Shown: positions 8,104 through 23,379 of the stretch, piece after piece
Numbering within the stretch: position 1 is the first letter of the stretch
Layout of the letters: each line of letters begins with the position of its first letter
DNA from: Candidatus Poribacteria bacterium
Lineage (GTDB): Bacteria > Poribacteria > WGA-4E > WGA-3G
DNA length: 64,000 nucleotides
Reading direction: 5' to 3'
NCBI GenBank assembly: GCA_965198235.1
Contig: OZ240248.1
Coordinates: 2,208,001-2,272,000 of the forward strand
Notes under the pieces: generated by a model
The model's database searches: none
What the model was told of the DNA's origin: nothing
The model's input: the letters and a program-made list of their open reading frames with translations, nothing else
Made by a program: the position numbers and the translations under genes

Positions 8104-8110
8104 AGTTGAT

Positions 8111-8139: not shown

Positions 8140-8173
8140 GTTCAGACAGCGCTATGGCAGAGCGATTCTATTC

Positions 8174-8202
8174 TCCTGTAGGAGGGATCTCCGAATCCCG
8201 AC
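8174..8202 (+). repeat. GTAG-class REP-like palindrome
   Basis: TCCTGTAGGAGGGATCTCCGAATCCCGA. Identical inverted copy at 17563-17590 and a variant at 32115-32138. Confidence 0.75.
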
Positions 8203-8212
8203 TTTTTCTAAC

Positions 8213-8241
8213 TTGATCTTTTTATGAGACACGGCTATAAT
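8213..8241 (+). promoter_or_regulatory. Sigma70-type promoter
   Basis: TTGATC-17 nt-TATAAT upstream of the AGGAGG RBS. Confidence 0.6.
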
Positions 8242-8264
8242 AAAATTACTAAAAGGAGGAGCAC

Positions 8265-9032
8265 ATGGACTGGCAATTGGAAGCAACTGTCTCTGATGAG
8301 CAGGTCGAATTTTACAAAGAAAACGGATATCTTATATTTGGACGCATCTTCACAAAAGCGGAGTTGGATACACTTCGAGATTATGTGGACGAGATGATTG
8401 AGAATTTGCCAGAGGGCAGACGTCCTGAACAGATGGATGTCCCACATTTTGAGCACCCATTTTTGTTTAAGTACCTAACGCATCCGCGGGTATTGAAGGT
8501 GATAGAACGGTTTATCGGACCGGATATTGCGCTCTGGTCGAGCCACTTTATTAGTAAACGCGAACACGATGGCATGGCAGTCCCGTGGCATCAAGACGGT
8601 GTATACTGGGGCAAGTCTCTTGAGCCGATGCATGTTATCACGATGTGGCTAGCGGTAGATGAATCGAAAGTTGAAAACGGTTGTATGCGTGTCATTGCTG
8701 GAAGTCATAACCAGCGAGACCGCCGCTATGAAGAGGTAGATCGGAAAAATAACCTTTTCGGCAGTGAAGTCATTGACGCTGACTTGGACGCCTCAAAGGT
8801 TGTCAACTTGGAACTGGAGGTCGGCGATTGCCATTTTCACGATGCGTGGACGATCCATAACTCCAGTCCGAACGTCTCACAGAAACGACGGTGTGGTTAC
8901 ACAATGCGCTACATGCCGGCAAATGTCCGCTACCCGGGTGCAGAATGGAGGCGCGCACATCATATCTATCTGCTGCAAGGTGAAGACAGGACAGATGGTT
9001 TTAACACCTACGCGCCTGTACCGGAATTCTAA
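8265..9032 (+). CDS. PhyH-family Fe(II)/2OG dioxygenase
   Basis: 'PWHQD', 'ENGCMRVIAGSH', 'FHDAWTIHNS', 'RR'. Confidence 0.92.
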   Translation: MDWQLEATVSDEQVEFYKENGYLIFGRIFTKAELDTLRDYVDEMIENLPEGRRPEQMDVPHFEHPFLFKYLTHPRVLKVIERFIGPDIALWSSHFISKREHDGMAVPWHQDGVYWGKSLEPMHVITMWLAVDESKVENGCMRVIAGSHNQRDRRYEEVDRKNNLFGSEVIDADLDASKVVNLELEVGDCHFHDAWTIHNSSPNVSQKRRCGYTMRYMPANVRYPGAEWRRAHHIYLLQGEDRTDGFNTYAPVPEF

Positions 9033-9079
9033 AGATTGCAGGGTCCCTTAAGCACACAGAAAAACGAAAAGGAGGAGTT

Positions 9080-9940
9080 ATGCGTCCCTATTTCGATGTC
9101 CATTGTCACATCGGTATGACGGTATCACGCGCGCCGACTATAGGTCAGAGCGTCGGACGATGTCTCGCCCGGATGGCTTCCGCAGGTGTTATCGGTGCGA
9201 TTCCCTGCCCAACGGGTGGTAGTCCGCAGGCACGTGGTGTATTGGACACGCGCGCACAACACGAGACGATTGCCAACGCATGTAAGCTCTATCCAGAACG
9301 CTTTCCGATTGGACTTGGGATCGCGGAAGTCCGACACGAACAAGCGGGTGCTGACGAATTAGACAGAGCCATGCAGGAAGATGGTTTGGTTGGATTTATG
9401 TGTCATCCTGGATTGTCTGGACATTCACTCGGTGGTGAGCTATACGCGTTCCTTGAAGTCGTAGCGATGCACAACGGATTATGTCTGCTACATCAGGCAG
9501 GTTCCACCCAAAATATTGCTGCTTACGCGCAGCGATTTCCGTCGATAACGTTTATTATCGGGCATGTTTCAATGAATAAAGCCGGACATCTCGATGCAAT
9601 TGCGCAGTGTGGAAAATGCGAGAATATCTGGTTCGATGTAGCACAGAAGCCGGAAGGGGCAGATACGGGTTGGGACCTTGTACACCTCGTCAATAATCTC
9701 GGGAGCGACAGGATTATGTTCGGGAGCGACCTGCCGTATTACAATTTTCGTCTGGTGCAGGCGCAGATTGAATCCGCAGGACTTGATGATGAAACAAAGG
9801 AACGGATTGCCTACCGGAACTCGGCGCGGTTGGTTCAGCAATTCCGGGTAGACTGGATACCGACGTTGACCCCAATAACGCCCCCACAAGTTTACTCTGA
9901 GGCTGAGATGTGGGATGCGAATGGGGCAAGGCTGCGCTAA
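9080..9940 (+). CDS. Amidohydrolase_2 family metal-dependent hydrolase
   Basis: 'FDVHCH', 'IIGHV', 'DRIMFGSDLPY'. AGGAGG RBS. Confidence 0.85.
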   Translation: MRPYFDVHCHIGMTVSRAPTIGQSVGRCLARMASAGVIGAIPCPTGGSPQARGVLDTRAQHETIANACKLYPERFPIGLGIAEVRHEQAGADELDRAMQEDGLVGFMCHPGLSGHSLGGELYAFLEVVAMHNGLCLLHQAGSTQNIAAYAQRFPSITFIIGHVSMNKAGHLDAIAQCGKCENIWFDVAQKPEGADTGWDLVHLVNNLGSDRIMFGSDLPYYNFRLVQAQIESAGLDDETKERIAYRNSARLVQQFRVDWIPTLTPITPPQVYSEAEMWDANGARLR

Positions 9941-9975
9941 CCAGTAGAAGCGATCTCCCAATCGCGACGCAATGG

Positions 9976-10842
9976 TTACTTGACAATTTCGACTGCACGA
10001 ATCCGACGGTGGAGCACGAAAAGGCAAAGGACTATCAGGGCAATCTGGACGAGGAGTGCCCACGCCCAATGCACGGCGTACTCGTGTGAACCCGCAAATA
10101 GGGCTGTGCCGAGAATGTCGTAGTGTGCCCAAATGGAAACTAAAGCCATTTTACTGGTGCGGGTAATCGATTTGAGTACCTCGTAGATAACAGGCGAACC
10201 GAACCACACGGCGCAGAAACCGATGATGGCATAGCGAGGATTTGAGGTGAGAGATGAGAACAATAACATCAATAGACTGGAAGAGAACGTGATAAGCACC
10301 GAGTAGGCAACGATCGAAAGAGGGATCCAATAGTTCTCTTTCAGAAAAGGGGTATCGGTCAGCAGCGCATGTTCAAGAAATAGCAACAGTCCCGGAACCA
10401 ATGTGAGACAACCGATCAAGATACCGATGACAGCAAATTTCCCGATCAGGTAGTCTATCCATGAAAGAGGTTTGGAGAGATAGAGTGAGAGCGCGTTGTT
10501 CTTTAGGTCAGTGGCGATTAATCCAGATCCCCCGAAAATAGCAATCAGCGCGATGAGAAATGAGGAAGGGGGACCTGTGCCGGGGTTTCGGAATAGAAAT
10601 TTCTGAAAGAATTCGTTGTCAATATCAAACGGAAACTCCACTCCCGCCACCTGGTTAAGGATGTAAATAAGGATTGCGTGAACCAAGATGTAGATTGCGG
10701 GGGGAATAGCAACAATCAATCGGACAATTTTGCGTTGTGTCAGCAGTTTTAACTCTGCTTTTGTGATAATCCACCACCGTGTATGAGGGCGGGGGTTCAG
10801 TGTGCCTTCCCAATGTCGGTAGTCTTGTGTGTGAATGGGCAT
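9976..10842 (-). CDS. ABC-2 type transporter permease
   Basis: About 6 TM segments and 'IATDLKNNALSLYLSKPLSWIDYLIGK', an ABC-2 permease signature. Confidence 0.85.
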   Translation of the reverse strand: MPIHTQDYRHWEGTLNPRPHTRWWIITKAELKLLTQRKIVRLIVAIPPAIYILVHAILIYILNQVAGVEFPFDIDNEFFQKFLFRNPGTGPPSSFLIALIAIFGGSGLIATDLKNNALSLYLSKPLSWIDYLIGKFAVIGILIGCLTLVPGLLLFLEHALLTDTPFLKENYWIPLSIVAYSVLITFSSSLLMLLFSSLTSNPRYAIIGFCAVWFGSPVIYEVLKSITRTSKMALVSIWAHYDILGTALFAGSHEYAVHWAWALLVQIALIVLCLFVLHRRIRAVEIVK

Positions 10843-10926
10843 ATTTCTTAATTCAGTCTCGCTATTTGTATGATTCTGAAGAACAACAGTGATAAGGCTA
10901 CGCGTTTAAAATATTAAGCCAAAACG

Positions 10927-11015
10927 CTAGTCCGTAATGAAATGGAGGACGGCTTTAGAGCGAGGAAAATCAAGTTCCCAACCCACGTCATTTAACCGCA
11001 AGGCATAATTAAAAA
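10927..11015 (+). repeat. Dispersed hairpin repeat, subfamily A variant
   Basis: CTAGTCCGTAATGAAATGGAGGAC...AACCGCAAGGCATAATTAAAAA. Confidence 0.75.
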
Positions 11016-11021
11016 GCTGTC

Positions 11022-11540
11022 TTAATGCTTATAGATGGCGGTTCTCTCTAAGGTATCCGAGAAGGGCCCCTGTTTTTCAGTCTGAATTTCAACGGTGATG
11101 ACACCTAAAGGCGTGTCGCGTTCCGGATCTTCGTCGATGAAGGCACGCGGGATTTCCGCAGTCATGAGCCGATCCAGTCTATTAAGTTCTTGCGACCAAC
11201 GGAGGTCGATGAGCCGTCCATCGTAGACTTTCTTATGTTGCTTCCCGTTACGCATGGAATAAACCTTGACATTGGTGGTGAAATCCGCTTCAGAAACAGT
11301 GCTCACGCCGATACTTGGACTGAGGATGCTCTGATTCCATATCAACGGTATGCCGTTTCTATCAACCAGATAAATCCGTAGATCAATCCTATCAACGCGT
11401 GAGTCCGAGTGGATCTGGATGCCCTCAAAATTCTGAATTACCCCGCTCCCACACGAAAGCGTAACAAGAACGCAGATGCCGACGAGCACGACTCTCCGAC
11501 TCTTTAATATAAGCTTGCGGGGCAAATTAAAACGAAACAC
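11022..11540 (-). CDS. Hypothetical lipoprotein
   Basis: GAGGAGG RBS. Hydrophobic stretch ending 'TLSC'. No recognised domain. Confidence 0.7.
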   Translation of the reverse strand: MFRFNLPRKLILKSRRVVLVGICVLVTLSCGSGVIQNFEGIQIHSDSRVDRIDLRIYLVDRNGIPLIWNQSILSPSIGVSTVSEADFTTNVKVYSMRNGKQHKKVYDGRLIDLRWSQELNRLDRLMTAEIPRAFIDEDPERDTPLGVITVEIQTEKQGPFSDTLERTAIYKH

Positions 11541-11650
11541 ATCAATCCTCCTCTATTGGGTTTTTAAGGGCAGCTTGCAGGCTTCCCATAGAAGTCCGTT
11601 TCAATTCATTATAGCGTTTTAAGAGGCGGATGTCAATCTAAAATCCCGTC

Positions 11651-11678
11651 TTGCATCTTTTCTCAAAAGTGATATAAT
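11651..11678 (+). promoter_or_regulatory. Sigma70-type promoter
   Basis: TTGCAT-16 nt-TATAAT with an extended TG. Confidence 0.5.
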
Positions 11679-11762
11679 GATACTCATGATACCCACTTCT
11701 GGGACCGAGTGCGTGGATACTTTAAAAAGAGAGAAACGTACAAACTCTCAAAGACATCTAAG

Positions 11763-11844
11763 CTTAATCGGAAACCTGCCCGTAACGAAGTGGAGGGGTT
11801 TTTGCTTGGGTGTTGCTTTAGTCCAGGGTCCATAGTTAAAAAAA
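11763..11844 (+). repeat. Dispersed structured repeat, subfamily B (copy 2)
   Basis: AAACCTGCCCGTAACGAAGTGGAGGGGTTTTTGCTTGGGTGTTGCTTTAGTCCAGGGTCCATAGTTAAAAAAA, lying in the 5' leader of the ADH gene. Confidence 0.8.
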
Positions 11845-11863
11845 CAAATTTCGGAGGAACCCC

Positions 11864-12946
11864 ATGAAAGCCGCAGTATTATATGAAACTGACACACACT
11901 TAAAGATTGAGGAGTTCGACTTACCGCGTCCAAGCGCGAATCAGGTACGAGTGCGATTGGTCGCCAGTGGCGTTTGCCACTCCGATTGGCACGTCGTTAA
12001 GGGCGATTGGCCCTTCGTCAGGTTACCTGTCATCCTTGGACATGAAGGGGCTGGAATCATTGAAGAGATCGGAAGCGATGTGACGCAAGTCCAGGTCGGT
12101 GACCATGTTATCCTTTCATGGAAACGGAACTGTGGATACTGCGAAATGTGCCAGAAAGGGTATCCGAATTTGTGTGCGCTTCCTTCCGACGGTTCAGGCA
12201 GACCAGCTATAAAATCAAGTGGACGTGAGATCGACCAGATGTCGGGATTAGGAACATTCGGCACTGAGACGCTCGTTCCACAAGACGCGGTTGTTCCCAT
12301 TGATAAGGACATGCCGTTCGCACAAGCCGCGCTGATTGGGTGTGGCGTGATGACAGGGGTCGGTGCGGCTATCAATACAGCAGAAGTTTCACCCGGCAGT
12401 TCAGTCGCTGTCTTTGGATGCGGTGGGGTTGGACTCAATTGCATACAAGGTGCCGCGCTTTCTGGTGGTGAGCCTATTATTGCCGTTGATGTACTGGACA
12501 ACAAACTTGAACTCGGCAAACAGTTTGGTGCGACGCACATGGTTAACGCCTCCGAGGTAGACCCCGTAGAACGAATTAAGGAGATTACCGATGGACGTGG
12601 TGTCCACTATGCATTTGAGGCAATCGGGTTGATCGGTGAAACCTTCCGACAAGCGATCCTCTGCACGCGGAGTAGAGGTGTGACGGTGTTTGTCGGGCAT
12701 GCCCCGGAGAATACCTCCGTCGAATTCGATGCACGGATGCTGATGCCAGAGAAGATGGTTATCGGTTCGATGTACGGCACTGCGCGTCCGCATGTAGATT
12801 TCCCGCGTTTGGTTTCGCTCTATAAAGCCGGGCAACTTAAGCTGGACGAACTCGTCACGCGCACCTATCCCTTGGAAGGGATAAATGAGGCATTTGAGGC
12901 TTTGGCAAGAGGCGAAGTCGCACGGAGCGTCCTTGATTTAACTTAA
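11864..12946 (+). CDS. Zn-dependent alcohol dehydrogenase (class III/FDH-like MDR)
   Basis: 'GVCHSD', 'GHEGAG', structural Zn motif 'CGYCEMC...C', 'GCGVMTG', 'GCGGVG'. Confidence 0.92.
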   Translation: MKAAVLYETDTHLKIEEFDLPRPSANQVRVRLVASGVCHSDWHVVKGDWPFVRLPVILGHEGAGIIEEIGSDVTQVQVGDHVILSWKRNCGYCEMCQKGYPNLCALPSDGSGRPAIKSSGREIDQMSGLGTFGTETLVPQDAVVPIDKDMPFAQAALIGCGVMTGVGAAINTAEVSPGSSVAVFGCGGVGLNCIQGAALSGGEPIIAVDVLDNKLELGKQFGATHMVNASEVDPVERIKEITDGRGVHYAFEAIGLIGETFRQAILCTRSRGVTVFVGHAPENTSVEFDARMLMPEKMVIGSMYGTARPHVDFPRLVSLYKAGQLKLDELVTRTYPLEGINEAFEALARGEVARSVLDLT

Positions 12947-12970
12947 TAAAATGGGGTGGAGGCCGGAAAA

Positions 12971-13789
12971 CTATTCGAGGATACGTTCCATACGCTCGCG
13001 AATCCACGCTTTGTGTTCAGGATGTGTGTGAATATAGAAGGTACCGTTCTGGATGGCGTTATAGACCTGCTCTGCCACTTCCGAAGGCGACATGCCCGCC
13101 TCCATCTCGGCGCGGGTGTTCCGTGAACCGCCGATAGTTAGTTCATGCGGTTGCGTCTTCTCCGTCGGGTTTCGCCATGCGTCCGGGCGGTTTCGGGCGG
13201 AGTCCAGAATCCCCGTGCGAACCCAGCCGGGACACAGCACATGCACCTGAATATTAGCCCCTTTCTGTGCCAATTCATCGGCGAGGGTTTCGGAAAGCAC
13301 GACGACACCGTGTTTGCTCACCTTATAGATGCCTTCGCCACTGCCTCCTACCAAGCCCAAGATGGAAGCAGTGTTCACAATATGACACTCGTCCCCTTGT
13401 GCGAGCATGCGCGGAACAAACGCGCGGATGCCGTGAATCACACCCCACAGGTTAACGCCCAACACCCATTCCCAGTCGGCGAGGGGGTGCTCCCAGACAG
13501 GTCGGCTACAAACAACGCCGGCGTTGTTACAGAGGATATGCACCGCGCCAAAAGCATCTAACGTCTGCTGGGCAAGGTTTTCGACCTCTGTTGCGTTTGA
13601 GACATCCGTTCTGACGGTGAGAACCGTTGCCCCTTTGGCACTTAAGTCCGCTTCAAGTCCAACTAACGGCTCATCTTCAACGTCAGCGAGAACGACTTTC
13701 ATACCTTCCGCTGCAAACCGTTCTGCCAATCCTCGTCCGATACCGCTCGCTGCACCAGTGATAACAGCAACATTTTGCATGACGTTCAA
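12971..13789 (-). CDS. SDR family oxidoreductase
   Basis: 'TGAASGIG', 'NNAGV', 'YKVSK'. ATGA overlap with the upstream DUF169 gene. Confidence 0.92.
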   Translation of the reverse strand: MNVMQNVAVITGAASGIGRGLAERFAAEGMKVVLADVEDEPLVGLEADLSAKGATVLTVRTDVSNATEVENLAQQTLDAFGAVHILCNNAGVVCSRPVWEHPLADWEWVLGVNLWGVIHGIRAFVPRMLAQGDECHIVNTASILGLVGGSGEGIYKVSKHGVVVLSETLADELAQKGANIQVHVLCPGWVRTGILDSARNRPDAWRNPTEKTQPHELTIGGSRNTRAEMEAGMSPSEVAEQVYNAIQNGTFYIHTHPEHKAWIRERMERILE

Positions 13790-14484
13790 ATCTCCGCCTG
13801 GCGTTGCTGATGATACTCCTCTAACGCCCGATTTGCATTCACAATCGTCTCTAACTTTTCGCCGAGCGCGTCGATGTGTTCACCGGGGAAAGCGAAGTAG
13901 AAGTCATCGTCGGAGAGTGATGTATAGACGCGGTTGCCGATACACCCCAAGCTGCTTACACTTCGTCCGCCTTGTATCACAGCAGGAATGACTGCACACG
14001 TTGGTCGTCCCATGACACCCCCTTCTGTTGAAAAGTCGGTGCCGACTCCAGCAGCGGTTGCGGCTTCTGCCAAGAGCATCATCTGTCTTGGCGTGCCAGA
14101 GATGATGACGACATCGGGAGTGCCTATCGCACCTGCTAAAGGCGCGTAGACTGCACTTTGGAAAGGGGTTTCCTGTCTTGGGATACCCGGAACTTCTTCC
14201 ATAGCGATGTAGCCGAGTTCGCCCATCAATCCGAGTGTATTTTCAAGTTCCTCGGCTTGCGCGGGTGGAAGTTCAACGTTATGGGTGTAGCACCCTATCG
14301 GGCAGTTGTAATGGTCGGAGGCTTCGGTGTAGAAGGTTTTGCCTTCCGCTGCACGTCGCCAATAGGTGCAACCGGAAGCTTCAACCTTTTCCACACCGGA
14401 AACACCATCCGGTTGTGTGTCATGAAACGTTACAGCAACAGGGGCGGTTTCCAAATTGAGCAATTGTTGAATCCGTTCTGACAT
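13786..14484 (-). CDS. DUF169-like Cys-rich protein
   Basis: 'PVAVTF', 'SGCTYW', 'NCPIG', 'PDVVI', 'RPTCA', 'SLGCIGNR' pattern. AAGGAG RBS. Confidence 0.75.
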   Translation of the reverse strand: MSERIQQLLNLETAPVAVTFHDTQPDGVSGVEKVEASGCTYWRRAAEGKTFYTEASDHYNCPIGCYTHNVELPPAQAEELENTLGLMGELGYIAMEEVPGIPRQETPFQSAVYAPLAGAIGTPDVVIISGTPRQMMLLAEAATAAGVGTDFSTEGGVMGRPTCAVIPAVIQGGRSVSSLGCIGNRVYTSLSDDDFYFAFPGEHIDALGEKLETIVNANRALEEYHQQRQAEI

Positions 14485-14616
14485 ATTTTCTCCTTTATAG
14501 CCAAAGTCGGTTTTTGGCAGGGGAGGGGCGGGAGAAGTTCCCAGAGTTAAAAAGTTGCTAAAAACCTATCTGAAACCCAATTGGACTGTCCGACCAATCG
14601 GAGCAAAACCCGATAG

Positions 14617-16026
14617 TTAAAAGGATTGAATTGGGGCAAACTGCCCATCCGTAGGTTCCGCTCAGCAGAACCATGCTTCGGTGAGTCGTGGCGCGGGTAG
14701 ATGTGCTTCTCTTTTCTGTATTGGTGGAGAATGCCCTTGCCTGTCGGCAGCAAGGGTCCATATCCGATAAAAGGTCTTCAACGCGTCAACACCGGCTCGC
14801 GCATCGGTTTCGACGAGGGCATTGACCGTTTTATGGAGTTCATCCATTCGTGCATCGGGGTGCGCCCACGTGTAACTGAAGGAGGCTTCGTCAAGTGTGA
14901 GTGAAAGTTGTTTCGTTTCGGGACGATTGAGTAGATATGAACCCGGTGGAATTAGCAATCGAACGGCATATTGCACCGGATCCACGTGATAGATGAGGCG
15001 ATACTTATCAACAAACTGGAGGATTTCGAGATAGTCATCTAAGGTCGTCCACGGCGTAAACGGCACCCATGTCGGACGTAACGCGATTCCAGCTCCGTGA
15101 ACGATGTCAATTGCTTCCTCTACATCGGCACGCGTGTGATGCTTCTCCAAAATCGTCAGCACCTGTTTATTCAGTGTTTCGACGGCAGAGATGACGAACC
15201 GACATCCGAGTTGCGCGAATTCTGGAAAATGTGCTCTATTTTTCAGAATGTGCTCAATCTTGGTTGTAAGGTCAAAAGTGAGTGTCGGGAAGGTTTCGTG
15301 CATTGCGCGAAGGATACGGAGTCCATGCGTCGGACCGTTGAGAAAATCTGGGTCGCCAAAGGTGATATGTGTCGCACCTTCCACGACCTGTTCCTGTATT
15401 TCGGCGAGTACGGTGTCGCGTTGCACAGCGAAAAACTTGCCGTTATAGACCGGAGGAATAGGGCAGTGCATGCAGAGATGCTTGCACCCGTGTGTTGTCT
15501 CGGTATAACCGACGGTTCGCACCTCATCCTTGTCCTCAAATTGGGCATAGGTTTCCAGCGGTGGTAGTGCCGCAATGTGAAAATCGGATTCCTCTGCTTC
15601 AGACTGTCCTTCCTCTGCAAGGGATTCCACCAGCGTGACGAGTTGCGTTGACGCTGTGCCACTGATGCAATAATCAACACCGTGTGAAAGCAGATAGTCG
15701 GCGTTGAGCGTTGCGTAAAGACCATACATGCATATTTTGTAAGGTGTCCCTTGCTTAAGTTGACGGATGCGTTCAAGGAGATGAACCCCCAGCCGCAAAG
15801 CGGTGTGCATCGGGACGGATATACCGATGAAGCGTGCGCGCTCAACCTTTTCAACATCCAACGGTTCGACAGCAATATCAATTGCATCGGAAGCGAATCC
15901 CGCCGTTTCAAGAGCGCGAAGTGGACGGGTAAGTCCGATCGGTCGGTGCCCGAGTTCATAGCACGAGATTAAGAGGACAGCACCGGGATCATGTATCGCT
16001 GAGGCGATCTGCGTTTCCGTTTTCAT
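14617..16026 (-). CDS. CUAEP-tail radical SAM (seleno)protein, with TGA at 14664-14662 read as Sec
   Basis: CxxxCxxC 'GCKHLCMHCP' and an N-terminal B12-binding-like domain. Read-through gives ...EAWFC-U-AEPTDGQFAPIQSF-TAA. Confidence 0.85.
14623..14650 (-). promoter_or_regulatory. Candidate bacterial SECIS element
   Basis: GGAT-GGGCA-GTT-TGCCC...ATCC hairpin starting about 11-15 nt after the in-frame UGA, with a G-U apical loop. Confidence 0.55.
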
Positions 16027-16033
16027 ACTAAAT

Positions 16034-16062
16034 AGGATAGCACGTCATCAGAGAATTGGCAA
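16034..16062 (-). promoter_or_regulatory. Sigma70-type promoter (leaderless candidate)
   Basis: TTGCCA-17 nt-TATCCT with an extended TG, 7 nt before the ATG, no SD. Confidence 0.55.
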
Positions 16063-16107
16063 CACAATCTTTGGTTGATTTTGAAGTCAAGGTGCTTACA
16101 AGCACAC

Positions 16108-17481
16108 CTACTTCGCAAGTCTCTGAAGAATGTTATGCGTGATGCGTTCAACGATAGCATCGCCACCCGCCAAGCCGTGCGACCAATCGGTTGTGGCGGC
16201 GGTAAAGACAGTCCCACCTTTTGTGTAGATACCCATCGTTGCGGCACCGGTTCTCCCTCTTTCCCAACGTTCATACCATGCACAGTCATCAGGATGCCAA
16301 CGGACAGGAGCCGTTGCGAGGATCGTGAAACCTTCAGGCGTACCGTCGCGATAGGTCGGGACCGGCAGACCGTCTTCAAGGGTCCACTCGCATCCGTCGC
16401 ATTCGTAACCGACAATGGTATTTTCGCCACCAAAGGTATCATCTCGCGAGAGATTTGTTCCTTCAAACACCCAGTGCTCCGGATGATGGGCGGTATATTC
16501 CCCAGGACCGTCCATAAACTGTCCATGGCTCAAATGATAACCCCCTTGCAGAAAGCCTACACCGGTCAACTGGTTCTCGGGACGGTCTACCAGATAGTGG
16601 CTCCACAGCGTACTGAGGGTACTGTGGTCATCGGTCTTATAAACCGGATCCTGGTTATAGGTTTGCTTCCAGCAGACGAGAGCCCTACCGTCATCTTCAG
16701 AGCGGACCTGCCAACAAACCGAATTCCCACTGAAGAAGGCGGCGTTTCCGCCGTTGGCAATAAATGCCTCAAGATTATCGCGCATCGGAGCGGACCAGTA
16801 TTCATCATGTCCGACGCTCAAGACGAGTTTGTAATGCTCCAACATTTCAGGGTGGAATTCCAAATCGGAGTTCGCAGCGTAATCAAGCGTGTACCCGTTC
16901 TGTTCCGCCCAGACGATAAAGGGCAGTTCCCAGTTACTGCAGATACCACGGGTGGGTCGATCGAACGAGACACGGTTTCCCTGTATCTTACTTGCCCCGT
17001 GATACCCGTAAAGACTGAAGCCACCCCAGTTGTTATAGGCGTTATAAGTGTTAGTAGAGAGTTGGAGTAGGATAGGCGTATTCGCCCCCGGTTTCGCAGG
17101 ACGGACAATAAAGAAGAGCGTGCTTTCAGCCGTGCGGTGATTTCTATAGACCTGGGCACCACCGCCATCGGTCGCACGGAGTGTGCCTTCATAATACCCG
17201 CTTTGCCACGTTTCAGGCACTTCGAGCGTAAAGGTGGGAGACCATCCACATCCCTGCGATGATGCATCTGCGGGAATGGGTTGCGCTTCACCCGGAAGTT
17301 CGGTCTGACTCCAGACGACCTCGCGCGTTGCACCGATGCGAGTAATCTCAAGCGAGTAGTTTTCTGCACTCGTTGAGAGGTGGAACGCGATTTCTTCACC
17401 GGGAGCATAGCTGAGTTGGTGGGTGTATCCGTCAATATACAGCGGTCTGATTTGGTTCTCGGTTTGCGTTAAATTTGCCAT
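16108..17481 (-). CDS. N,N-dimethylformamidase beta-subunit-like (DUF6605) protein
   Basis: 'TNTYNAYNNWGGFSLY', 'VSFDRP', 'SVGHDEYWS', 'FFSGN', 'VGYECDG', 'VFTAATTDW'. AGGAGG RBS before MANLTQ. Confidence 0.8.
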   Translation of the reverse strand: MANLTQTENQIRPLYIDGYTHQLSYAPGEEIAFHLSTSAENYSLEITRIGATREVVWSQTELPGEAQPIPADASSQGCGWSPTFTLEVPETWQSGYYEGTLRATDGGGAQVYRNHRTAESTLFFIVRPAKPGANTPILLQLSTNTYNAYNNWGGFSLYGYHGASKIQGNRVSFDRPTRGICSNWELPFIVWAEQNGYTLDYAANSDLEFHPEMLEHYKLVLSVGHDEYWSAPMRDNLEAFIANGGNAAFFSGNSVCWQVRSEDDGRALVCWKQTYNQDPVYKTDDHSTLSTLWSHYLVDRPENQLTGVGFLQGGYHLSHGQFMDGPGEYTAHHPEHWVFEGTNLSRDDTFGGENTIVGYECDGCEWTLEDGLPVPTYRDGTPEGFTILATAPVRWHPDDCAWYERWERGRTGAATMGIYTKGGTVFTAATTDWSHGLAGGDAIVERITHNILQRLAK

Positions 17482-17562
17482 TATACGTCCTCCTTTGATG
17501 TGTAGCGTAGCATTTTCTGGACGAAATGTCAACTTCTCAAGGCTATTTCTGAGAGCAAGGAA

Positions 17563-17590
17563 TCGGGATTCGGAGATCCCTCCTACAGGA
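17563..17590 (-). repeat. GTAG-class REP-like palindrome
   Basis: Exact reverse complement of 8174-8201. Confidence 0.75.
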
Positions 17591-17632
17591 ATCGTCAGGG
17601 GTCAGCAGTCGGCAAGAATCGCGAGCATGGGG

Positions 17633-17760
17633 GAAATCCGCAGGGAAACACCCTATCAAAAACCCCAGGCAATACGCAGAAATCCGCAGAAATCCACAGA
17701 AACACCCTATCAAAAACCCCTATCAAAAACCCCAAGCAAAAACACCCCAAGCAAACACAC
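17633..17760. repeat. Cluster of short direct repeats
   Basis: GAAACACCCTATCAAAAACCCC x2 plus a partial copy, (CA)GAAATCC x3, CCCCAAGCAAA x2. Confidence 0.75.
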
Positions 17761-17919
17761 TCGCTCCTCCAATAGGATAGCAGTTAGGGGTCGGAATTCG
17801 GAGATCTCTTCTGCCTAATAATTCTGTTCTTTTGACTTTCTTTGTCAGATGTGCTATTATCTTTATAACCTTTTGCTTTTTGTTAACGTGAGCTCGATAA
17901 TAAAAATTCAAGTGTGACC

Positions 17920-18033
17920 GTAGGTTGGGTTGAGCGGTGAATCAAAAAAATCTCCAGTCTATCAGCAAAATACTGATTTTCAAGAACACGTTCATCGAAA
18001 TAGACATAGCGAAATCCAACAAGCCAACCCTAC
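17920..18033. repeat. REP doublet (REPIN-like)
   Basis: GTAGGTTGGGTTGAGCG ... GCGAAATCCAAC ... CCAACCCTAC, with inverted GTAG/CTAC ends. Confidence 0.55.
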
Positions 18034-18134
18034 CCGTCTGAGAATGTGTCGGGTTTCCAACTACATGCTTAGGTCGAGTTTACGTTTGTTACCTTAATTT
18101 TCAAAATTGTTCAAACTTTGGAATTGAGTAAAAA

Positions 18135-18992
18135 ATGAATATCAATCAGAAACAGGCAACTCCGCTATCACCTGAACAGATGGATCAGTGGGAAAACGAC
18201 GGATATTTGCTACTGAAAAACGTTGTTCCAGAATCTGCCATCAACGGTGTACGGGACAGTTTTGCCGGCATCGTGGATGGTATAATTCGTGAGTTGAAAG
18301 CGGACGGAATTATCGAAGATGAAGGGACAGACCTCCCTTTTGAAACGCGGTTTGCGCATATCGCTGGCGAGCATGCCAACCGATTTGGTCGTTCTTGGCG
18401 TAACCAAGTTGCGACACCTGAGGTTTTTGATTTGCACCACGCGCCTCTCCTCGTGGACGCAATCGGTCAACTCACAGGCACAGATGTCATCGGACATCCC
18501 GTTTTCAATGCCCGCCCCAAACTCCCCGGTCAGCAATTGACAGTCGTCCCATGGCATCAAGACAGCGGTTATTTCGGCACGGTAAGTGAGACTTCGCTCA
18601 TCCCGACTGCATGGATACCGTTGGTGCCGGTAGATGAGGCCAACGGTTGTTTGCAAGTGGTTGCAGGTTCACATCGATTAGGCGTGGTCGATCATCGGAC
18701 GGAAGAACGGGAGGGGAAGTTTCTTGAGGTAATGGATGAGCTTATCGAGAATTCTCGTGTCGTGACATGCCCAATGGAATTAGGGGATGCTTTGGTATTC
18801 CACAATTTGACGTTCCACCGATCGCTACCGCATACCACGAGCGAGGTCGTCCGTTGGGCGATTGACATCCGGTATCTCCGGGACGGCGACCATCCGGGCA
18901 CTATTTATTGGAAAGATCCGGATTTCAAGTGGGTCATCTGTAGTAAAACGCAACCTGTGACACCCGTTACACAATGGCTTGAAATGTGGTAG
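18135..18992 (+). CDS. PhyH-family Fe(II)/2OG dioxygenase
   Basis: 'PWHQD', 'NGCLQVVAGSH', 'FHNLTFHRS'. Confidence 0.92.
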   Translation: MNINQKQATPLSPEQMDQWENDGYLLLKNVVPESAINGVRDSFAGIVDGIIRELKADGIIEDEGTDLPFETRFAHIAGEHANRFGRSWRNQVATPEVFDLHHAPLLVDAIGQLTGTDVIGHPVFNARPKLPGQQLTVVPWHQDSGYFGTVSETSLIPTAWIPLVPVDEANGCLQVVAGSHRLGVVDHRTEEREGKFLEVMDELIENSRVVTCPMELGDALVFHNLTFHRSLPHTTSEVVRWAIDIRYLRDGDHPGTIYWKDPDFKWVICSKTQPVTPVTQWLEMW

Positions 18993-19005
18993 TGGACAGA
19001 AGTAT

Positions 19006-20016
19006 ATGAAACGTGTACCTTTTCAAACTTTACAAGGCGAATTTTATCGTGCGCTTGCAGCAATTGGATTTAGCGACGAGCGAGGGATGCTATGTGCACG
19101 GCTATTTGCCGAAAATCAACGCGATGGTGTATATTCGCATGGACTCAATCGTTTCTCTGGATTCGTTGCTGGACTGGAGAACAAACAGATCGATTTCCGG
19201 GCGCAGCCAGAGAAAATTGAAGGTTTCGGTGCGTTAGAACGCTGGGATGGCAAGATGGGGGTAGGGCTTGTCAACGCGCATTTCTGTATGCAACGGGCAA
19301 TGGAACTTGCGGAAGTACACGGCATCGGGTGCGTTGGACTTTCAAACACGAACCACTGGATGCGTGGCGGTGCCTACGCTCTACAAGCCGCGGAAGCCGG
19401 ATACATCGGGATATGTTGGACGAATACAACTCGACTTATGCCACCGTGGGGTTCTGCGGAAAAAAAGATCGGGAACAATCCGATGGCGATTGGCATTCCG
19501 AGAGAAGACGGACACATTCTCCTGGATATGGCGATGAGCCAATACTCAAACGGGAAATTGGAAGTGCTGCAGCTGCAAGGGAAGCAATTGCCGTTACCGG
19601 GTGGGTACGACACCAACGGAGAACTAACGGTTGAACCGGGGGAGATTCTTGATTCTGCAAGGGCACTTCCCATCGGCTATTGGAAAGGGTCGGGCTTGGC
19701 ACTGGTGCTCGACACAATGGCATCCGTTATTTCCGGTGGACAAGCTACACACGAAATCGGAAAGCAGGGCTCGGAATACGCCGTTTCTCAGGTGTATATT
19801 GCTATTAACGCTACCGGAATGATGGGACAAGCGGCGTTGGACGAAACGGTCGCAGCGATTGTTGACGACTTCCGGACGGCTGTCCCTTTAGACGAAAATG
19901 AGCGCGTGAGGTATCCGGGGGAAGGTATGCTGCGGACACGGCAGGAAAGTCTTGAAAAAGGGGTCCTTGTGGATGAGGTACAGTGGCAGGCGTTAGTAGA
20001 GATGACCGTCACTTAA
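19006..20016 (+). CDS. yiaK: 3-dehydro-L-gulonate 2-dehydrogenase / 2,3-diketo-L-gulonate reductase (Ldh_2 family)
   Basis: 'DGVYSHGLNRF', 'NTNHWMRGG', 'ICWTNT', 'MPPWG', 'DMAMSQYS', 'PIGYWKGSGL'. Confidence 0.88.
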   Translation: MKRVPFQTLQGEFYRALAAIGFSDERGMLCARLFAENQRDGVYSHGLNRFSGFVAGLENKQIDFRAQPEKIEGFGALERWDGKMGVGLVNAHFCMQRAMELAEVHGIGCVGLSNTNHWMRGGAYALQAAEAGYIGICWTNTTRLMPPWGSAEKKIGNNPMAIGIPREDGHILLDMAMSQYSNGKLEVLQLQGKQLPLPGGYDTNGELTVEPGEILDSARALPIGYWKGSGLALVLDTMASVISGGQATHEIGKQGSEYAVSQVYIAINATGMMGQAALDETVAAIVDDFRTAVPLDENERVRYPGEGMLRTRQESLEKGVLVDEVQWQALVEMTVT

Positions 20017-20032
20017 AGTTAGTCCCAGGTGC

Positions 20033-20122
20033 GTAGCTTGGAACGAAGTGGAAAGCGGATATACGTAAAGGAACATTCAAACACAAACCTACCTGACCGA
20101 ACCGCAAGGAAAATTAAAAAAA
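20033..20122 (+). repeat. Dispersed GTAG-hairpin repeat, subfamily A
   Basis: GTAGCTTGGAACGAAGTGGAAAGC...CCTGACCGAACCGCAAGGAAAATTAAAAA, homologous to 5455-5544. Confidence 0.85.
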
Positions 20123-20132
20123 TATTTTTGGC

Positions 20133-20160
20133 TTGCACTCTTTTTGTATCGGCGTATAAT
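20133..20160 (+). promoter_or_regulatory. Sigma70-type promoter
   Basis: TTGCAC-16 nt-TATAAT. Confidence 0.5.
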
Positions 20161-20230
20161 ACATCTTAATACGAAATCTGCAAACTATACCCTAAGCAAC
20201 CACGCATAAACTGAATTTGGGAGATAACTC

Positions 20231-21355
20231 ATGACATTACGGGCGGGGATTGTCGGTTGTGGCGGAATTAGCCGGAGCCACGCGGGCGCGCACGCGAACT
20301 TGGAAGGGATTGATCTCGTCGCGATGTGCGACATCAATCGCGATGCGCTCAACAACCGTGCCGACGAATACGGTGTCTCAAACCGATATACCGATTACGA
20401 AGAGATGTTCGCACGCGAGAAACTCGATATCGTGAGTGTGTGTACACACGCACCGTTACACGCTCCGATAGCAATTGCTGCCGCAAAAGCAGGCATCCAC
20501 GTTTTATGTGAGAAGCCGTTATCTGTTGATTTGGAAACAGCGGATCAAATGTTCACAGCGTGTCGTGAGGCAGGTGTGCACTTGGCGGTCAGTCATCAGT
20601 TCCGATTTACACCACTCTTTCGGCACGCGAAATCTCTGGTCGATGCGGGTAAAATCGGTGAACTCCGTTCAATTCGAGAAGTCGGCAAAGGACGTGAAGC
20701 GGGATTCGAGTTGATGGAAATGGGTGTACACTATTTTGACGAGATGGATTTCTTCTTAGACGGCATCTCTTGGATTCAGGCACATATCACATATCAGGGG
20801 CACGATGTGACAGAGAGCGACATTATGCACAGCAGTGAGTTGTGCAAAACCGACCGGCGCGACAATGGCATCGTCGCGGGAGATACGATGCTCGTGCATA
20901 TCGGCGGTGGGAACAGTGCCTACGGCATTATGGAACTTTACTGTCGCGAACCCAGACACGGTTGGATGATGGGACCGCATCTGCTCGGTTCAGAGGGGCA
21001 ATTGATGGTAAAACCGCACCCAGACACCGGTATAGATGAAATGTGGTACTGTCCCTTTGATGTCTCTTTTGCGGCACATACACCCGCATGGGAACAGATA
21101 GAACTTGACGCATCAGCGTTTCTAATCTCTGGTAAAGCGTGGCAGTCGCGCCACACTATCTGGAGTGCGAAAAATATACGAGATGCAATTCTTAACGAAA
21201 ACCAACCAGAGCTCGGTGGACGCAACGCGCTTACATCCCTTGAGTGTGTCAGTGCAACCTACGTCTCCCATTTCAGTGGGCAAAAGGTGCAACTGCCGTT
21301 AGAGGAGCGGAGTCATCCGCTTGTGAAACGTCTTAACAGAGGAGCAAATAACTGA
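20231..21355 (+). CDS. Gfo/Idh/MocA family oxidoreductase
   Basis: 'GIVGCGGI', 'HVLCEKP'. Confidence 0.9.
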   Translation: MTLRAGIVGCGGISRSHAGAHANLEGIDLVAMCDINRDALNNRADEYGVSNRYTDYEEMFAREKLDIVSVCTHAPLHAPIAIAAAKAGIHVLCEKPLSVDLETADQMFTACREAGVHLAVSHQFRFTPLFRHAKSLVDAGKIGELRSIREVGKGREAGFELMEMGVHYFDEMDFFLDGISWIQAHITYQGHDVTESDIMHSSELCKTDRRDNGIVAGDTMLVHIGGGNSAYGIMELYCREPRHGWMMGPHLLGSEGQLMVKPHPDTGIDEMWYCPFDVSFAAHTPAWEQIELDASAFLISGKAWQSRHTIWSAKNIRDAILNENQPELGGRNALTSLECVSATYVSHFSGQKVQLPLEERSHPLVKRLNRGANN

Positions 21356-22204
21356 ATGAAACTTGCATTCTTTAATGATTACCAACTCGGTGTAATAACA
21401 GAAGATGGGATCGTTGACATCAGCGGTGCACTCAGTAGCGTTTCGTATCGGACACCGCAAGAACTGATACGAACGGTGATTGAGGACTTTGATAATCTGC
21501 GTCCGACAATAGAGGGCGCGGTTGAAAACGGCACTGCCATCGCTTTGGACAGCGTCAGCTTTAAAGCACCGGTCCCGCGTCCCGGACAACTCGTCTGCCT
21601 TGCAGGCAATTACATTGAACCGGATAGTCCGTCGCGAGAGGATTTCAATGCCTTTCTGAAGTCGCCGACCGGTATCATTGCCACGAAGGGGAGGGTGGAA
21701 CTTCCAGAAGCGGACGTGACCGTGTTTCACTTTGAACCGGAATTAGCGATTGTGATTGGTAAAACGGCGAAGCATCTATCCGAAGATAACGCCTTAGACT
21801 GTGTCTTTGGTTACACGCAATTTATTGATGTTTCTGCGCGGGGATTGCCTGGCGGTTTCTTCTTAGGAAAAAGTTGGCACACGTTTGCACCGATGGGTCC
21901 AGCGATCGTTACTGCTGACGAAGTGGGTGACGGGAACGCACTCGGCGTGCAACTCTGGATTAACGACGGTCTCCAGCACGATTTCTCTACAAATTCCATG
22001 GCACGCTTTATCCCCGAATTGCTCGCAGAGGTGACCAATGTGGTAACGCTTGAACCGGGCGATGTTGTATCGACGGGGACGCACCATGAGGCACTCACCG
22101 CTATTGGAGACGGAGACACGGTAAAATTATCAGTAGAAAGTTTCGGTCCAGAGTTAAGCGTTAGCGTGAGCGACCCATTAAAGCGGACGACTTGGCGCGG
22201 TTAG
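21356..22204 (+). CDS. Fumarylacetoacetate hydrolase family protein
   Basis: 'HFEPELAIVIG', 'DVSAR', 'GKSWHTFAPMGP', 'LEPGDVVSTGT'. Directly abuts the upstream stop codon. Confidence 0.9.
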   Translation: MKLAFFNDYQLGVITEDGIVDISGALSSVSYRTPQELIRTVIEDFDNLRPTIEGAVENGTAIALDSVSFKAPVPRPGQLVCLAGNYIEPDSPSREDFNAFLKSPTGIIATKGRVELPEADVTVFHFEPELAIVIGKTAKHLSEDNALDCVFGYTQFIDVSARGLPGGFFLGKSWHTFAPMGPAIVTADEVGDGNALGVQLWINDGLQHDFSTNSMARFIPELLAEVTNVVTLEPGDVVSTGTHHEALTAIGDGDTVKLSVESFGPELSVSVSDPLKRTTWRG

Positions 22205-22250
22205 GATATTTGTAGCTCAGGTTTTTGTTCGCGATCTGTGCAAAAAAGTG

Positions 22251-22280
22251 TTGACAACTGTTTCAATTTATGTGTATAAT
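22251..22280 (+). promoter_or_regulatory. Consensus sigma70 promoter
   Basis: TTGACA-18 nt-TATAAT with an extended TG. Confidence 0.75.
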
Positions 22281-22429
22281 AGTTCAAGGCGTAATTTAGA
22301 GACTTCCCTCTAATCCACGAAATTCTTCTTTTAATAGCAAGTTTTGGCTTGCGAACTGTGCCACTTTTAACAGTAAGATTTGGAACGGTCCGGAATGAGA
22401 ACCTTTCTGACCATAAGGAGACTGAATTA

Positions 22430-23356
22430 ATGAAAAAACCCAGAAACATAGCCGTGCTCGCTGTCCTCACGATTGTCTGCGCGTGGATGGCAGGATGTGC
22501 TGGCTGTAATCCAGAACCGTTACCCAGCGGAATGGGTCCTACAGAGGGACCTGAAACCGGCGGGACGACTGTCCAGATTACTGGCGAAAAATTTGATATG
22601 AAAAACGGCGTAACCGTGACGTTCGGTGGGAAAAATGCGCAAAGTGTAACTGTCCCAAGTGAAATGCAAATCACGGCAGTGACTCCCGGCGGCATGGCGG
22701 GAGAATCTGTGTCCGTCGTCGTTACGAATAAAGGAAAACCTGAAGTACCGGTCACGCTTTCACAGAAATTTACTTACACCGACGCGACCCCGCCGACAGT
22801 GACAATGAATGAACCTGTAGATGGCACAGTCATCTCTGAGTACGAGGATTCGCTGAATGTAATGAATAGTCTATCGGTTTCGTTCAGTGAACCGATTGAC
22901 AGCAATAGCGTCTCTGTGGATGTGGCAGTCACGAAAACGGAAGATTCAATGAGTGAACCGATGAACGGAATGCTGTCAGGTACAGTGAGCGGAAGCGGCG
23001 ATTCGGTGACGTTTACATCCGATATGCCGATGCGCGCAGGACGTATGTACACCGTGACTGTCTCCGGTGCCACCGATATGGCAGGCAATGCCCTCGCAAG
23101 TTCACACAGTTTCAGTTTCAGCATCACCAATCCTGAGGTACTTTACAAGTACCATGTGCGGGAAGAGGATATTCAGGAAGAAAATGGCGAAGCGGCACTC
23201 AAGCGAATCGCCGCGCGTCCTGAGATTTTCGATGATGCAGAGATGTGGAAGCGATTAGTTGCCGCGAATCAGGACGATTATATCTTTGATCGGAGCAAAC
23301 TGAGTGTGGGACAACTGTTATTGATTCCACGTGGCCGTGCTTGGGGCGATAAATAG
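22430..23356 (+). CDS. Lipoprotein with IPT/TIG, Ig-like (Big_5) and LysM-like domains
   Basis: Lipobox-like 'MAGC'. TIG 'PTEGPETGGTTVQITGEKF'. 'DATPPTV...FSEPID...ATDMAGNAL'. C-terminal 'YHVRE...LSVGQLLLIP'. Confidence 0.8.
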   Translation: MKKPRNIAVLAVLTIVCAWMAGCAGCNPEPLPSGMGPTEGPETGGTTVQITGEKFDMKNGVTVTFGGKNAQSVTVPSEMQITAVTPGGMAGESVSVVVTNKGKPEVPVTLSQKFTYTDATPPTVTMNEPVDGTVISEYEDSLNVMNSLSVSFSEPIDSNSVSVDVAVTKTEDSMSEPMNGMLSGTVSGSGDSVTFTSDMPMRAGRMYTVTVSGATDMAGNALASSHSFSFSITNPEVLYKYHVREEDIQEENGEAALKRIAARPEIFDDAEMWKRLVAANQDDYIFDRSKLSVGQLLLIPRGRAWGDK

Positions 23357-23379
23357 GCAAGAATTCATAACGAAGATCG

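Follow-up and report, generated by a model that had tools for sequence, protein, structure and literature searches.

A radical SAM gene that continues past a UGA codon

The DNA analyzed here is a 64,000-nucleotide (nt) stretch, referred to as the window, of the genome of a Candidatus Poribacteria bacterium (assembly GCA_965198235.1, contig OZ240248.1, positions 2,208,001 to 2,272,000 of the forward strand). Its minus strand carries a gene for a radical S-adenosylmethionine (SAM) enzyme that is almost certainly a genuine selenoprotein of the NCBIfam family NF040546, with an internal UGA codon decoded as selenocysteine (Sec) with the help of a conserved hairpin. Sec insertion itself is predicted here from sequence comparisons. 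A DUF169 gene and a short-chain dehydrogenase/reductase (SDR) gene lie downstream, and a DMFA2_C-like gene lies upstream (Table 1).

The open reading frame (ORF) that begins with the ATG at 16026 runs for 454 codons (14662..16026), ends in ...PRLTEAWFC, and is followed by the TGA. The same frame continues past this TGA as AEPTDGQFAPIQSF and ends at a TAA. The ATG at 16026 is taken as the start because no further ATG, GTG, or TTG is present between it and the conserved N-terminus. The 14 open codons past the TGA are not significant alone, as (61/64)^14 is ~0.5. Because the open frame and the fold of the single sequence are both weak alone, the case for read-through rests on related sequences.

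Table 1. Features of the radical SAM locus and its adjoining genes (positions in the window)
Feature	Position	Strand	Details
Radical SAM selenoprotein (predicted), full coding sequence	14617..16026	-	469 residues, Sec = residue 455, stop TAA 14619-14617; translated with TGA = U
UGA codon, predicted Sec (U455), directly after Cys454	14662..14664	-	Comparison of homologous codons
Post-Sec tail AEPTDGQFAPIQSF	14620..14661	-	Family motif C[UC]AEPTxxQh; A456 and P458 invariant (alignment A2)
Radical SAM cluster motif C181-x3-C185-x2-C188 (GCKHLCMHC)	15463..15486	-	Invariant in alignments A1 and A2
N-terminal Rossmann-like, B12-binding-like domain, residues 19-131	15634..15972	-	Sub-threshold Pfam B12-binding; fold matches AprD4, OxsB, TsrM
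SECIS-type hairpin	14634..14646	-	GGGC 14646-14643, loop AGUUU 14642-14638, GCCC 14637-14634
DUF169 gene	13786..14484	-	132 nt downstream; Pfam PF02596 97.9 bits; 4 Cys and 3 His invariant
SDR oxidoreductase gene	12971..13789	-	Overlaps DUF169 stop by 4 nt; Pfam adh_short 167.5 bits
DMFA2_C-like gene	16108..17532	-	Upstream; Pfam PF20254 297.3 bits

When translated through the UGA, the protein matches NF040546, which is named "CUAEP/CCAEP-tail radical SAM (seleno)protein", with 606.9 bits (E 2.4e-182; cut-off 500). The alignment places residues 17-464 on profile positions 1-467/468, and it passes through the TGA. The Pfam Radical_SAM domain (PF04055) is also found, at 42.5 bits. The family is already known, because the score exceeds a curated cut-off; in other words, NF040546 is already curated, including its selenoprotein character, and the gene in the window is a further member from a sponge-symbiont phylum. 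It shares with the family the CxxxCxxC motif, the WFC[UC]AEPT tail, and a Sec at the family's Sec/Cys site. Nothing that defines the family differs; what sets this copy apart is that it comes from Poribacteria and that the stem of its hairpin is short. A preprint by Haft and Gwadz (10.1101/2022.07.06.499078) lists NF040546 among the few families with a Cys-Sec motif. A literature search for CUAEP returned nothing relevant beyond this preprint, and no paper on the reaction of NF040546 was found. The annotated product of 454 residues is a truncation, and the residues lost by it are the conserved Sec and the AEPT motif, so the annotation needs correction.

Evidence that the UGA codon is decoded as Sec

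The homologous codon was compared in 80 loci from at least 12 phyla. It is TGA in 57 loci, TGC in 13, and TGT in 6, and 4 truncated loci leave it unreadable; these shares should not be taken as typical, since Cys-Cys was a requirement of one of the two search patterns and the ranking gave preference to relatives of a Sec form. The Cys forms keep the same frame and the same AEPTxxQ motif beyond the codon. The conserved tail motif, PRLTExWFC[UC]AEPTxxQ, is ~16 residues long. Among 176 Poribacteria genomes, 114 have a match at E <=1e-50, and 113 of them score above the family cut-off. Each Poribacteria match that reaches the end of the profile has exactly one TGA, and the pattern WFC*AEPTxGQLxxL is present in 30/30 of the Poribacteria loci that were fetched. 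The 120 nearest database proteins are all annotated as ending in W[FY]C because gene callers cut them at the TGA, and no experiment underlies these ends. Clustering at 50% identity gave 150 representatives: 46 carry CC[AS]EP, 38 end in W[FY]C, 7 are W[FY]CCAxP variants, 4 are ArsL-like and end in ...KRCC[LI][KR]C, and 55 are fragments or others. One carrier of the Cys form, with a TGT codon, is the cultured bacterium Thermogemmatispora carboxidivorans PM5 (NZ_JNIM01000001.1, locus L125).

A hairpin of the Sec insertion sequence (SECIS) type begins 15 nt past the UGA, and its apical loop starts 20 nt past it. The fold of the 71 nt that follow the UGA in the window is weak as a single sequence (z = -1.92), as 12/200 shuffles fold as well. 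Stronger evidence for the hairpin comes from an alignment (A3) of the 60 nt around the codon in 88 TGA forms, 87 of them distinct. Columns 22-28 and 34-40 of this alignment form a stem around the loop AGUUN, and 79.5% of their cells are paired, versus 68.0% in shuffles. The covariation score is 0.401, versus 0.196 in shuffles, and was reached by 0/500 of them. In a control in which the partner columns were slid by 1-3, covariation was at most 0.180. Pair 27:35 occurs as UA (39), CG (23), and GC (13), and pair 26:36 as GC (59) and AU (21). Column 27 holds a Gly codon's wobble base, and column 35 falls in the middle of a later codon. The residue encoded by that later codon (Asp, Gly, or Ala) varies together with the base at column 27 so that the pair is kept, and it is therefore pairing in the RNA that constrains the sequence.

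The stem in the window is short, with 4 G-C pairs, and it differs by a compensatory change from the GGUC/GACC stem of other Poribacteria families. The 45 nt past the codon fold with a mean of -13.95 kcal/mol in TGA forms (86 distinct) versus -10.7 kcal/mol in TGY forms (18; Mann-Whitney p = 0.016). An Rfam scan of positions 14450-14800 at E <=10 returned only a chance match to a snoRNA (12.9 bits) and no curated family for this SECIS. The Cys form of T. carboxidivorans PM5 still has a SECIS-like hairpin, GGGACC-AGUUC-GGUCUC, after its codon; the retained hairpin suggests a recent change from Sec to Cys in this bacterium.

The genome, which is 5.17 Mb in 2 contigs, encodes the machinery for Sec. 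The matches to selA (592.5 bits; cut-off 267.9), selB (348.2 bits; cut-off 242.25), selD (359.8 bits; cut-off 125), and tRNA-Sec (78.1 bits; cut-off 47) are all above their cut-offs, and ARAGORN likewise reports a tRNA-SeC with the anticodon tca. The selD gene (contig 1, 3115227-3116150) has one in-frame TGA, and the SelD of this genome is probably a selenoprotein itself. The tRNA-Sec gene lies directly downstream of selB on the same strand (contig 1, 3673008-3675162).

These results bear out a sequence-only reading of the window, which had claimed that the frame continues past EAWFC-TGA to a TAA, that the product is a CUAEP/CCAEP-tail radical SAM selenoprotein, and that a GGGCA-GTT-TGCCC hairpin follows at a SECIS-like distance. 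The sequence confirms the continued frame, with its end at 14617, and the hairpin is the same element that covaries across the TGA forms. That reading had also expected TGA to alternate with TGY and AEP to be conserved in homologues, and it had named the lack of Sec machinery and of conservation past the TGA as what would speak against a selenoprotein; both are present. A rival explanation, with the TGA as a genuine stop, Cys454 as the last residue, and RNA or chance behind the conservation farther downstream, agrees with the 120 annotated ends but is extremely improbable, because the Cys forms continue in frame, the family profile spans the site, and a covarying hairpin at SECIS distance occurs in a genome with complete Sec machinery whose selD also has an in-frame TGA.

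Homology to ArsL

The second-best NCBIfam family for the protein is NF040542 (ArsL, rSAM_RCCLKC). The match covers residues 153-403 with 315.7 bits, which is below the cut-off of 450, so the gene does not qualify as an ArsL. In an alignment of 25 NF040546 members with 3 ArsL-like proteins, Cys is invariant only in the cluster motif (C181, C185, and C188) and at the vicinal positions 454/455, of which 455 is Sec in the window. The CC of the ArsL-like tail ...KRCC[LI]KC aligns on the Cys454-Sec455 pair. The two enzymes also have the same order of domains. Judged by this alignment, the parallel with ArsL that the sequence-only reading had drawn is one of real homology, beyond analogy.

ArsL cleaves SAM to methylthioadenosine and a 3-amino-3-carboxypropyl species (10.1101/2024.02.01.577332). 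According to two reports, its tail binds As(III), apparently via all three of its Cys residues, and the tail is required for formation of the C-As bond but dispensable for SAM cleavage (10.1101/2024.02.01.577332; 10.64898/2026.04.29.721666). The ArsL reaction mixtures as described list no cobalamin, and the authors regard ArsL as the only CxxxCxxC enzyme known to make a 3-amino-3-carboxypropyl species (10.1101/2024.02.01.577332). Among the literature matches listed for RCCLKC, all are on ArsL, and a search for literature joining ArsL with selenocysteine found nothing relevant. No ArsL structure was found in the PDB by sequence or by profile.

Predicted fold and the N-terminal domain

AlphaFold2, run on a 25-sequence alignment, predicted the structure with a mean predicted local distance difference test score (pLDDT) of 90.6 and a predicted TM-score (pTM) of 0.90; the pLDDT is <50 only at residues 4-12 and 141-151. 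The last four ten-residue blocks have pLDDT values of 78, 87, 85, and 83. In the model, the tail is apparently placed and docked rather than disordered. A PDB search with the single protein sequence returned nothing at E <=0.001, and a search by profile returned only distant B12-type and MiaB-type radical SAM enzymes (E down to 6.4e-14). The best Foldseek match of the model in the PDB is AprD4 (E 1.1e-14; TM-score by query length, TMq, 0.62), followed by OxsB, TsrM, MgmA, CysS, MiaB, and TokK. AprD4, OxsB, and TsrM match with equal scores (E ~1e-14, TMq 0.60-0.62). The two-domain fold is common to AprD4, OxsB, TsrM, MgmA, CysS, MiaB, and this protein; identity is 12-16%, and none of these enzymes has the Cys-Sec tail.

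Is the N-terminal domain a cobalamin domain? The matched structures of OxsB and TsrM are cobalamin-bound, whereas AprD4 is not known to bind cobalamin. The Pfam B12-binding domain (PF02310), which marks class B radical SAM enzymes, scores 27.6 bits here, below the cut-off of 32.1. The NCBIfam matches to class B families, including weak ones of the PhpK, HpnR, and MgmA types, are all <=36 bits versus cut-offs of 250-650. The domain resembles a B12 domain by predicted fold, and binding of cobalamin cannot be claimed for it.

Genes associated with the radical SAM gene

Neighbors within four genes on each side were clustered for 77 of the 80 loci, as 3 were too truncated, and 12 clusters were named or annotated. 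An ATP-grasp gene with an L-amino-acid-ligase C-terminal domain is a neighbor in 19/77 loci, and a tblastn search placed an ATP-grasp gene within 8 kb of the radical SAM gene in 30/80 loci. DUF169 is a neighbor in 17/77 loci from four phyla, downstream of the radical SAM gene; these include Planctomycetota, Vicinamibacterales, and Nitrospira. Iron and iron-sulfur (Fe-S) donors also recur: the Fe(2+)-trafficking protein YggX in 14/77 loci, mostly Chloroflexota, and Nfu in 11/77. An Fmt-like formyltransferase gene on the opposite strand is present in 12/77 loci. Typical orders are ATP-grasp-rSAM-Nfu, rSAM-DUF169-ATP-grasp, rSAM-Nfu-ATP-grasp, rSAM-Nfu-DUF169, and YggX-rSAM, where rSAM is the radical SAM gene. 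In T. carboxidivorans PM5, an ATP-grasp gene and an Fmt-like gene adjoin the radical SAM gene.

In the genome of the window, the ATP-grasp ortholog is not a neighbor. It lies 0.93 Mb away from the radical SAM gene (contig 1, 3152710-3154200; L153:5711-7204) and is 42-57% identical to the ATP-grasp genes that adjoin the radical SAM gene elsewhere. Five further genomes without the ligase at the radical SAM locus (four Chloroflexia and one Manganitrophus) all have it elsewhere. Across the 176 Poribacteria genomes, both genes are present in 114, the ligase only in 5, the radical SAM gene only in 0, and neither in 57. The two genes are confined to the same 10 of 31 genera (Table 2). The five ligase-only genomes (G114, G117, G120, G125, and G107) are all multi-contig assemblies of 30 to 880 contigs, and three of them are 78-83% complete; in G120, the DUF169 gene lies at a contig edge.

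Table 2. Poribacteria genomes with the radical SAM and ATP-grasp genes, by genus
Genus	Radical SAM	ATP-grasp
g1	50/64	54/64
g6	24/40	25/40
g7	1/1	1/1
g8	10/10	10/10
g9	1/1	1/1
g11	1/1	1/1
g12	1/1	1/1
g13	4/4	4/4
g14	1/1	1/1
g15	20/20	20/20
Other 21 genera	0	0

In family f1, the close DUF169 ortholog is distributed like the radical SAM gene (52/64 and 25/40 genomes), even where the two lie ~1 Mb apart (G099 and G105). In the window's own genus, 10 genomes lack the radical SAM, DUF169, and ligase genes together, and 3 of these genomes are single contigs (G155, G156, and G160). Because these unlinked genes were jointly lost in two genera, the radical SAM enzyme, DUF169, and the ligase appear to share a function, and DUF169 is likely a functional partner, as far as gene order and occurrence tell. 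Family f3 has only a distant, unlinked DUF169 copy of 31-36% identity.

The ligase itself has a form with an in-frame TGA. In four Poribacteria genomes (G148, G175, G136, and G144), the TGA aligns exactly on Cys381 of the ligase, in the motif ARTIGGL[C/U]ARTLRFG (L154-L157), and 116 further conserved residues follow in frame. In the ligase genes that adjoin the radical SAM gene in other phyla, this position is Cys in 30/30 (27 TGC, 3 TGT). The ligase of these four genomes is, going by this alignment, probably an unrecognized selenoprotein form of the ATP-grasp enzyme. No NCBIfam model reaches its cut-off on the ligase, and a search for literature joining ATP-grasp with selenoproteins found nothing relevant. 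The phyletic pattern shared with an unlinked ligase, the TGA that some genomes have at the invariant Cys of the ligase, and the association with DUF169 and with Fe-S and iron donors are new here.

What does DUF169 do? The protein has no PDB relative by profile, its best Foldseek match has an E of 0.34, and its best VIA-align Z is 4.6. A search of the Atlas returned only DUF169 clusters. Literature passages mention DUF169 genes beside hgcA and merR of Nitrospina, among YedE-linked genes, and beside SepRS, all of which are thin leads.

Possible reaction and the role of the tail

We tentatively favor an ArsL-like reaction, in which a SAM-derived alkyl group would be joined to a soft atom held by Cys454-Sec455 and the product would be passed to the ligase and DUF169. 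In this model by analogy, the enzyme would be a sister of ArsL whose docked Cys-Sec pair keeps a soft atom, or a small thiophilic substrate, positioned above the [4Fe-4S]-SAM site. A carbon-heteroatom bond would then form on the tail-held atom, for which both a chalcogen and a metal(loid) are conceivable. Judging from gene order and phyletic pattern, the product would next be handled by DUF169 and by the ATP-grasp ligase, whose presumably essential Cys is probably Sec in some genomes. Delivery or repair of the cluster would fall to Nfu, IscU/IscA, or YggX. We infer the role of the tail, the mode of SAM cleavage, the substrate, and the order of the steps. The reaction is favored for four reasons: the nearest relative with a known reaction holds its substrate atom by the aligned vicinal pair, the tail lies within an extended conserved motif that seems docked in the model, Sec and Cys stand in for each other in the radical SAM enzyme and in the ligase alike, as happens at residues that carry out chemistry, and Fe-S and iron donors are the most frequent neighbors.

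Several observations weigh against this reaction. The score against the ArsL family falls short of its cut-off. The tail here is CUAEP rather than RCCLKC and uses Sec; ArsL's third Cys (CCxxC) is absent, leaving two ligands and not three, and the linker is ~55 residues longer than in ArsL-like proteins. It cannot be read from sequence whether SAM would be cleaved to the 3-amino-3-carboxypropyl species or to the 5'-deoxyadenosyl species, and a vicinal Cys-Sec pair also looks like a redox-active tail. Among the 12 named or annotated neighbor clusters (single-copy neighbors were not annotated), no ars, mer, selenium-metabolism, or methyltransferase gene is present. DUF169 is not obligatory, because the 11 genomes of family f2 have the radical SAM gene and the ligase but no DUF169 with the query used. 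Moreover, the phyletic counts exaggerate the number of events, because related genomes do not count as independent. Finally, the Haft and Gwadz preprint describes the structure and function of NF040546 as not well known (10.1101/2022.07.06.499078).

The main rival, which we consider somewhat unlikely, is that the tail is redox-active. The Cys-Sec pair would cycle between a selenenylsulfide and the selenol/thiol form and would give electrons or a hydrogen atom to quench a radical in a canonical 5'-deoxyadenosyl reaction. The redox model for such a pair is the GCUG tail of thioredoxin reductase, a C-terminal Cys-Sec that passes electrons to a buried active site; likewise, the vicinal CC tail of mercuric reductase MerA passes a metal ion to a buried active site. 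What these two enzymes have in common with the protein described here is a vicinal chalcogen pair on a C-terminal segment. However, their flavoprotein disulfide reductase fold is unrelated, whereas here the pair belongs to a longer conserved motif, modeled as docked, on a radical SAM barrel. A redox role would fit a Cys that precedes Sec near the C-terminus, a Sec that Cys can replace, and a tail with two chalcogen ligands only, versus three in ArsL. It would also fit the structural neighbors AprD4, OxsB, and MiaB, which are all radical SAM enzymes and presumably use 5'-deoxyadenosyl chemistry. However, in the nearest relative of known reaction, the aligned CC serves to bind the substrate and not for redox, the conserved tail is long and in the model docked rather than a minimal flexible arm, and no thioredoxin or reductase gene is among the 12 neighbor clusters.

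A role in arsenic or mercury chemistry, with an organoarsenical as the product (as for ArsL) and Sec strengthening the binding of the metalloid, is improbable. It comes close to the view of the sequence-only reading, which had proposed a metal(loid) substrate such as arsenic. Homology to ArsL and the aligned vicinal pair speak for it, as does a single locus (L064) among 20 from Poribacteria that has an ArsR-type regulator and a heavy-metal P-type ATPase nearby. Further support comes from where else CU motifs occur, namely in HgcA, in some MerT proteins, and in a MerB-related (MerB-like) SAO system, according to 10.1101/2022.07.06.499078. These selenoproteins have the rare Cys-Sec dipeptide in common with this gene, but homology to it was not seen, and neither mercury nor SAO genes were found adjoining it among the window ORFs and the 12 clusters. 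The proposal of arsenic does not hold up well, because the protein does not reach the ArsL cut-off and has no counterpart of the third Cys, by which As(III) coordination is completed in ArsL according to the reports on that enzyme. Furthermore, ArsL is encoded in an ars operon with arsM and arsQ, as described in PMC8552651, whereas here an ATP-grasp ligase, DUF169, and Fe-S donors recur and no ars gene is among the 12 clusters of the 77 loci. Pfam and NCBIfam searches of 15 window ORFs (6958-25191) likewise found no ars genes. The gene is also kept in 113/176 Poribacteria genomes and in many other phyla, a spread that points to a housekeeping or cofactor role more than to a resistance or antibiotic cluster of sporadic occurrence. 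The substrate may still be a soft atom.

A cobalamin-dependent class B radical SAM methyltransferase acting on a soft atom or carbon is more improbable still. The sequence-only reading had assigned the enzyme a cobalamin domain, and the N-terminal Rossmann-like domain, the weak PhpK-, HpnR-, and MgmA-type matches, and the folds of OxsB, TsrM, MgmA, CysS, and TokK agree with it. That assignment is undercut by the sub-threshold Pfam score, by class B matches far below their cut-offs, by AprD4 (not known to bind cobalamin) being the best fold match, and by ArsL reaction mixtures that list no cobalamin.

To return to the ArsL-like reaction, a bolder and rather unlikely extension of it is a widespread and so far undescribed pathway made up of the radical SAM enzyme, the Cys/Sec ligase, and DUF169. 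The radical SAM enzyme would then be, after ArsL, a second CxxxCxxC enzyme that takes the 3-amino-3-carboxypropyl group from SAM and attaches it to a soft atom bound by its tail (S, Se, As, or a metal-bound ligand). Judging from the genomes in which the genes occur, the pathway would be present in Poribacteria, Planctomycetota, Acidobacteriota, Nitrospirota, Chloroflexota, Methylomirabilota, and others. If so, the reaction would yield a new non-proteinogenic amino acid that the ligase joins to a partner, and the end product would be a small thiol-/selenol-type or organometalloid metabolite, or a cofactor.

What the comparison adds to a curated family is a covarying SECIS, a tail homologous to that of ArsL, and a set of conserved partners that make the reaction testable. 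As the nearest relative of ArsL, the family gains a functional handle. The partner set (the Cys/Sec ATP-grasp enzyme, DUF169, and the Fe-S donors) can be co-expressed, and T. carboxidivorans PM5 offers a cultured carrier of the Cys form. Thus, it becomes testable what this widespread enzyme makes and why selenium is used.

Other features of the locus and its relatives

Two genes that adjoin the radical SAM gene in the window were considered as partners and set aside. Linkage of the SDR gene was found in Poribacteria only (9/77 loci), and the gene does not stand beside the radical SAM gene in other phyla; SDR was therefore rejected as a general partner. The DMFA2_C-like gene recurs only in Poribacteria loci of family f1, in synteny among close relatives, and is probably outside the system. 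Among 20 Poribacteria loci, DUF169 and SDR genes lie downstream in 12/13 loci of family f1, in 3 of them with a WD40 gene in between. Members of genus g6 (L055, L059, L071, and L076-L079) have 1-2 large WD40-repeat genes between the radical SAM gene and the DUF169-SDR pair. In the two loci of family f2, IscU and IscA lie downstream of the radical SAM gene, and in the two loci of genus g15, an Nfu/IscA-type gene lies directly upstream of it. A Vicinamibacterales contig (L095:2351-3076) carries, between Nfu and ATP-grasp, a DUF169 gene split into adjacent ORFs of 133 and 107 residues; a frameshift could explain the split, as could an error in sequencing.

In one study, four sponge metatranscriptome-library runs yielded contigs that cover the gene. 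Two of them (14408-14680 and 14320-14680) match without differences and span the stretch from the DUF169 start through the spacer, the TAA, and the hairpin to the TGA. Because DNA can be present in libraries of this kind and a contig does not demonstrate a transcript, they give a weak hint of transcription in this region. A scan of positions 12800-17800 for promoters and terminators gave counts no higher than in shuffles.

Near the unlinked ligase, an IS605 OrfB/TnpB-like gene with a Cas12f1-like TNB domain (L153:3297-4508) lies ~1.2 kb upstream of the ATP-grasp gene, with one ORF of 332 residues in between. Farther out in the window, the radical SAM locus is flanked by PhyH-type dioxygenase genes at 8265-9032 and 18135-18992 and by Ldh_2, GFO/IDH/MocA, and FAA-hydrolase genes in the ORFs at 18979-22204. 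Part of this flanking neighborhood is syntenic in close relatives and is unrelated to the radical SAM gene in other phyla.

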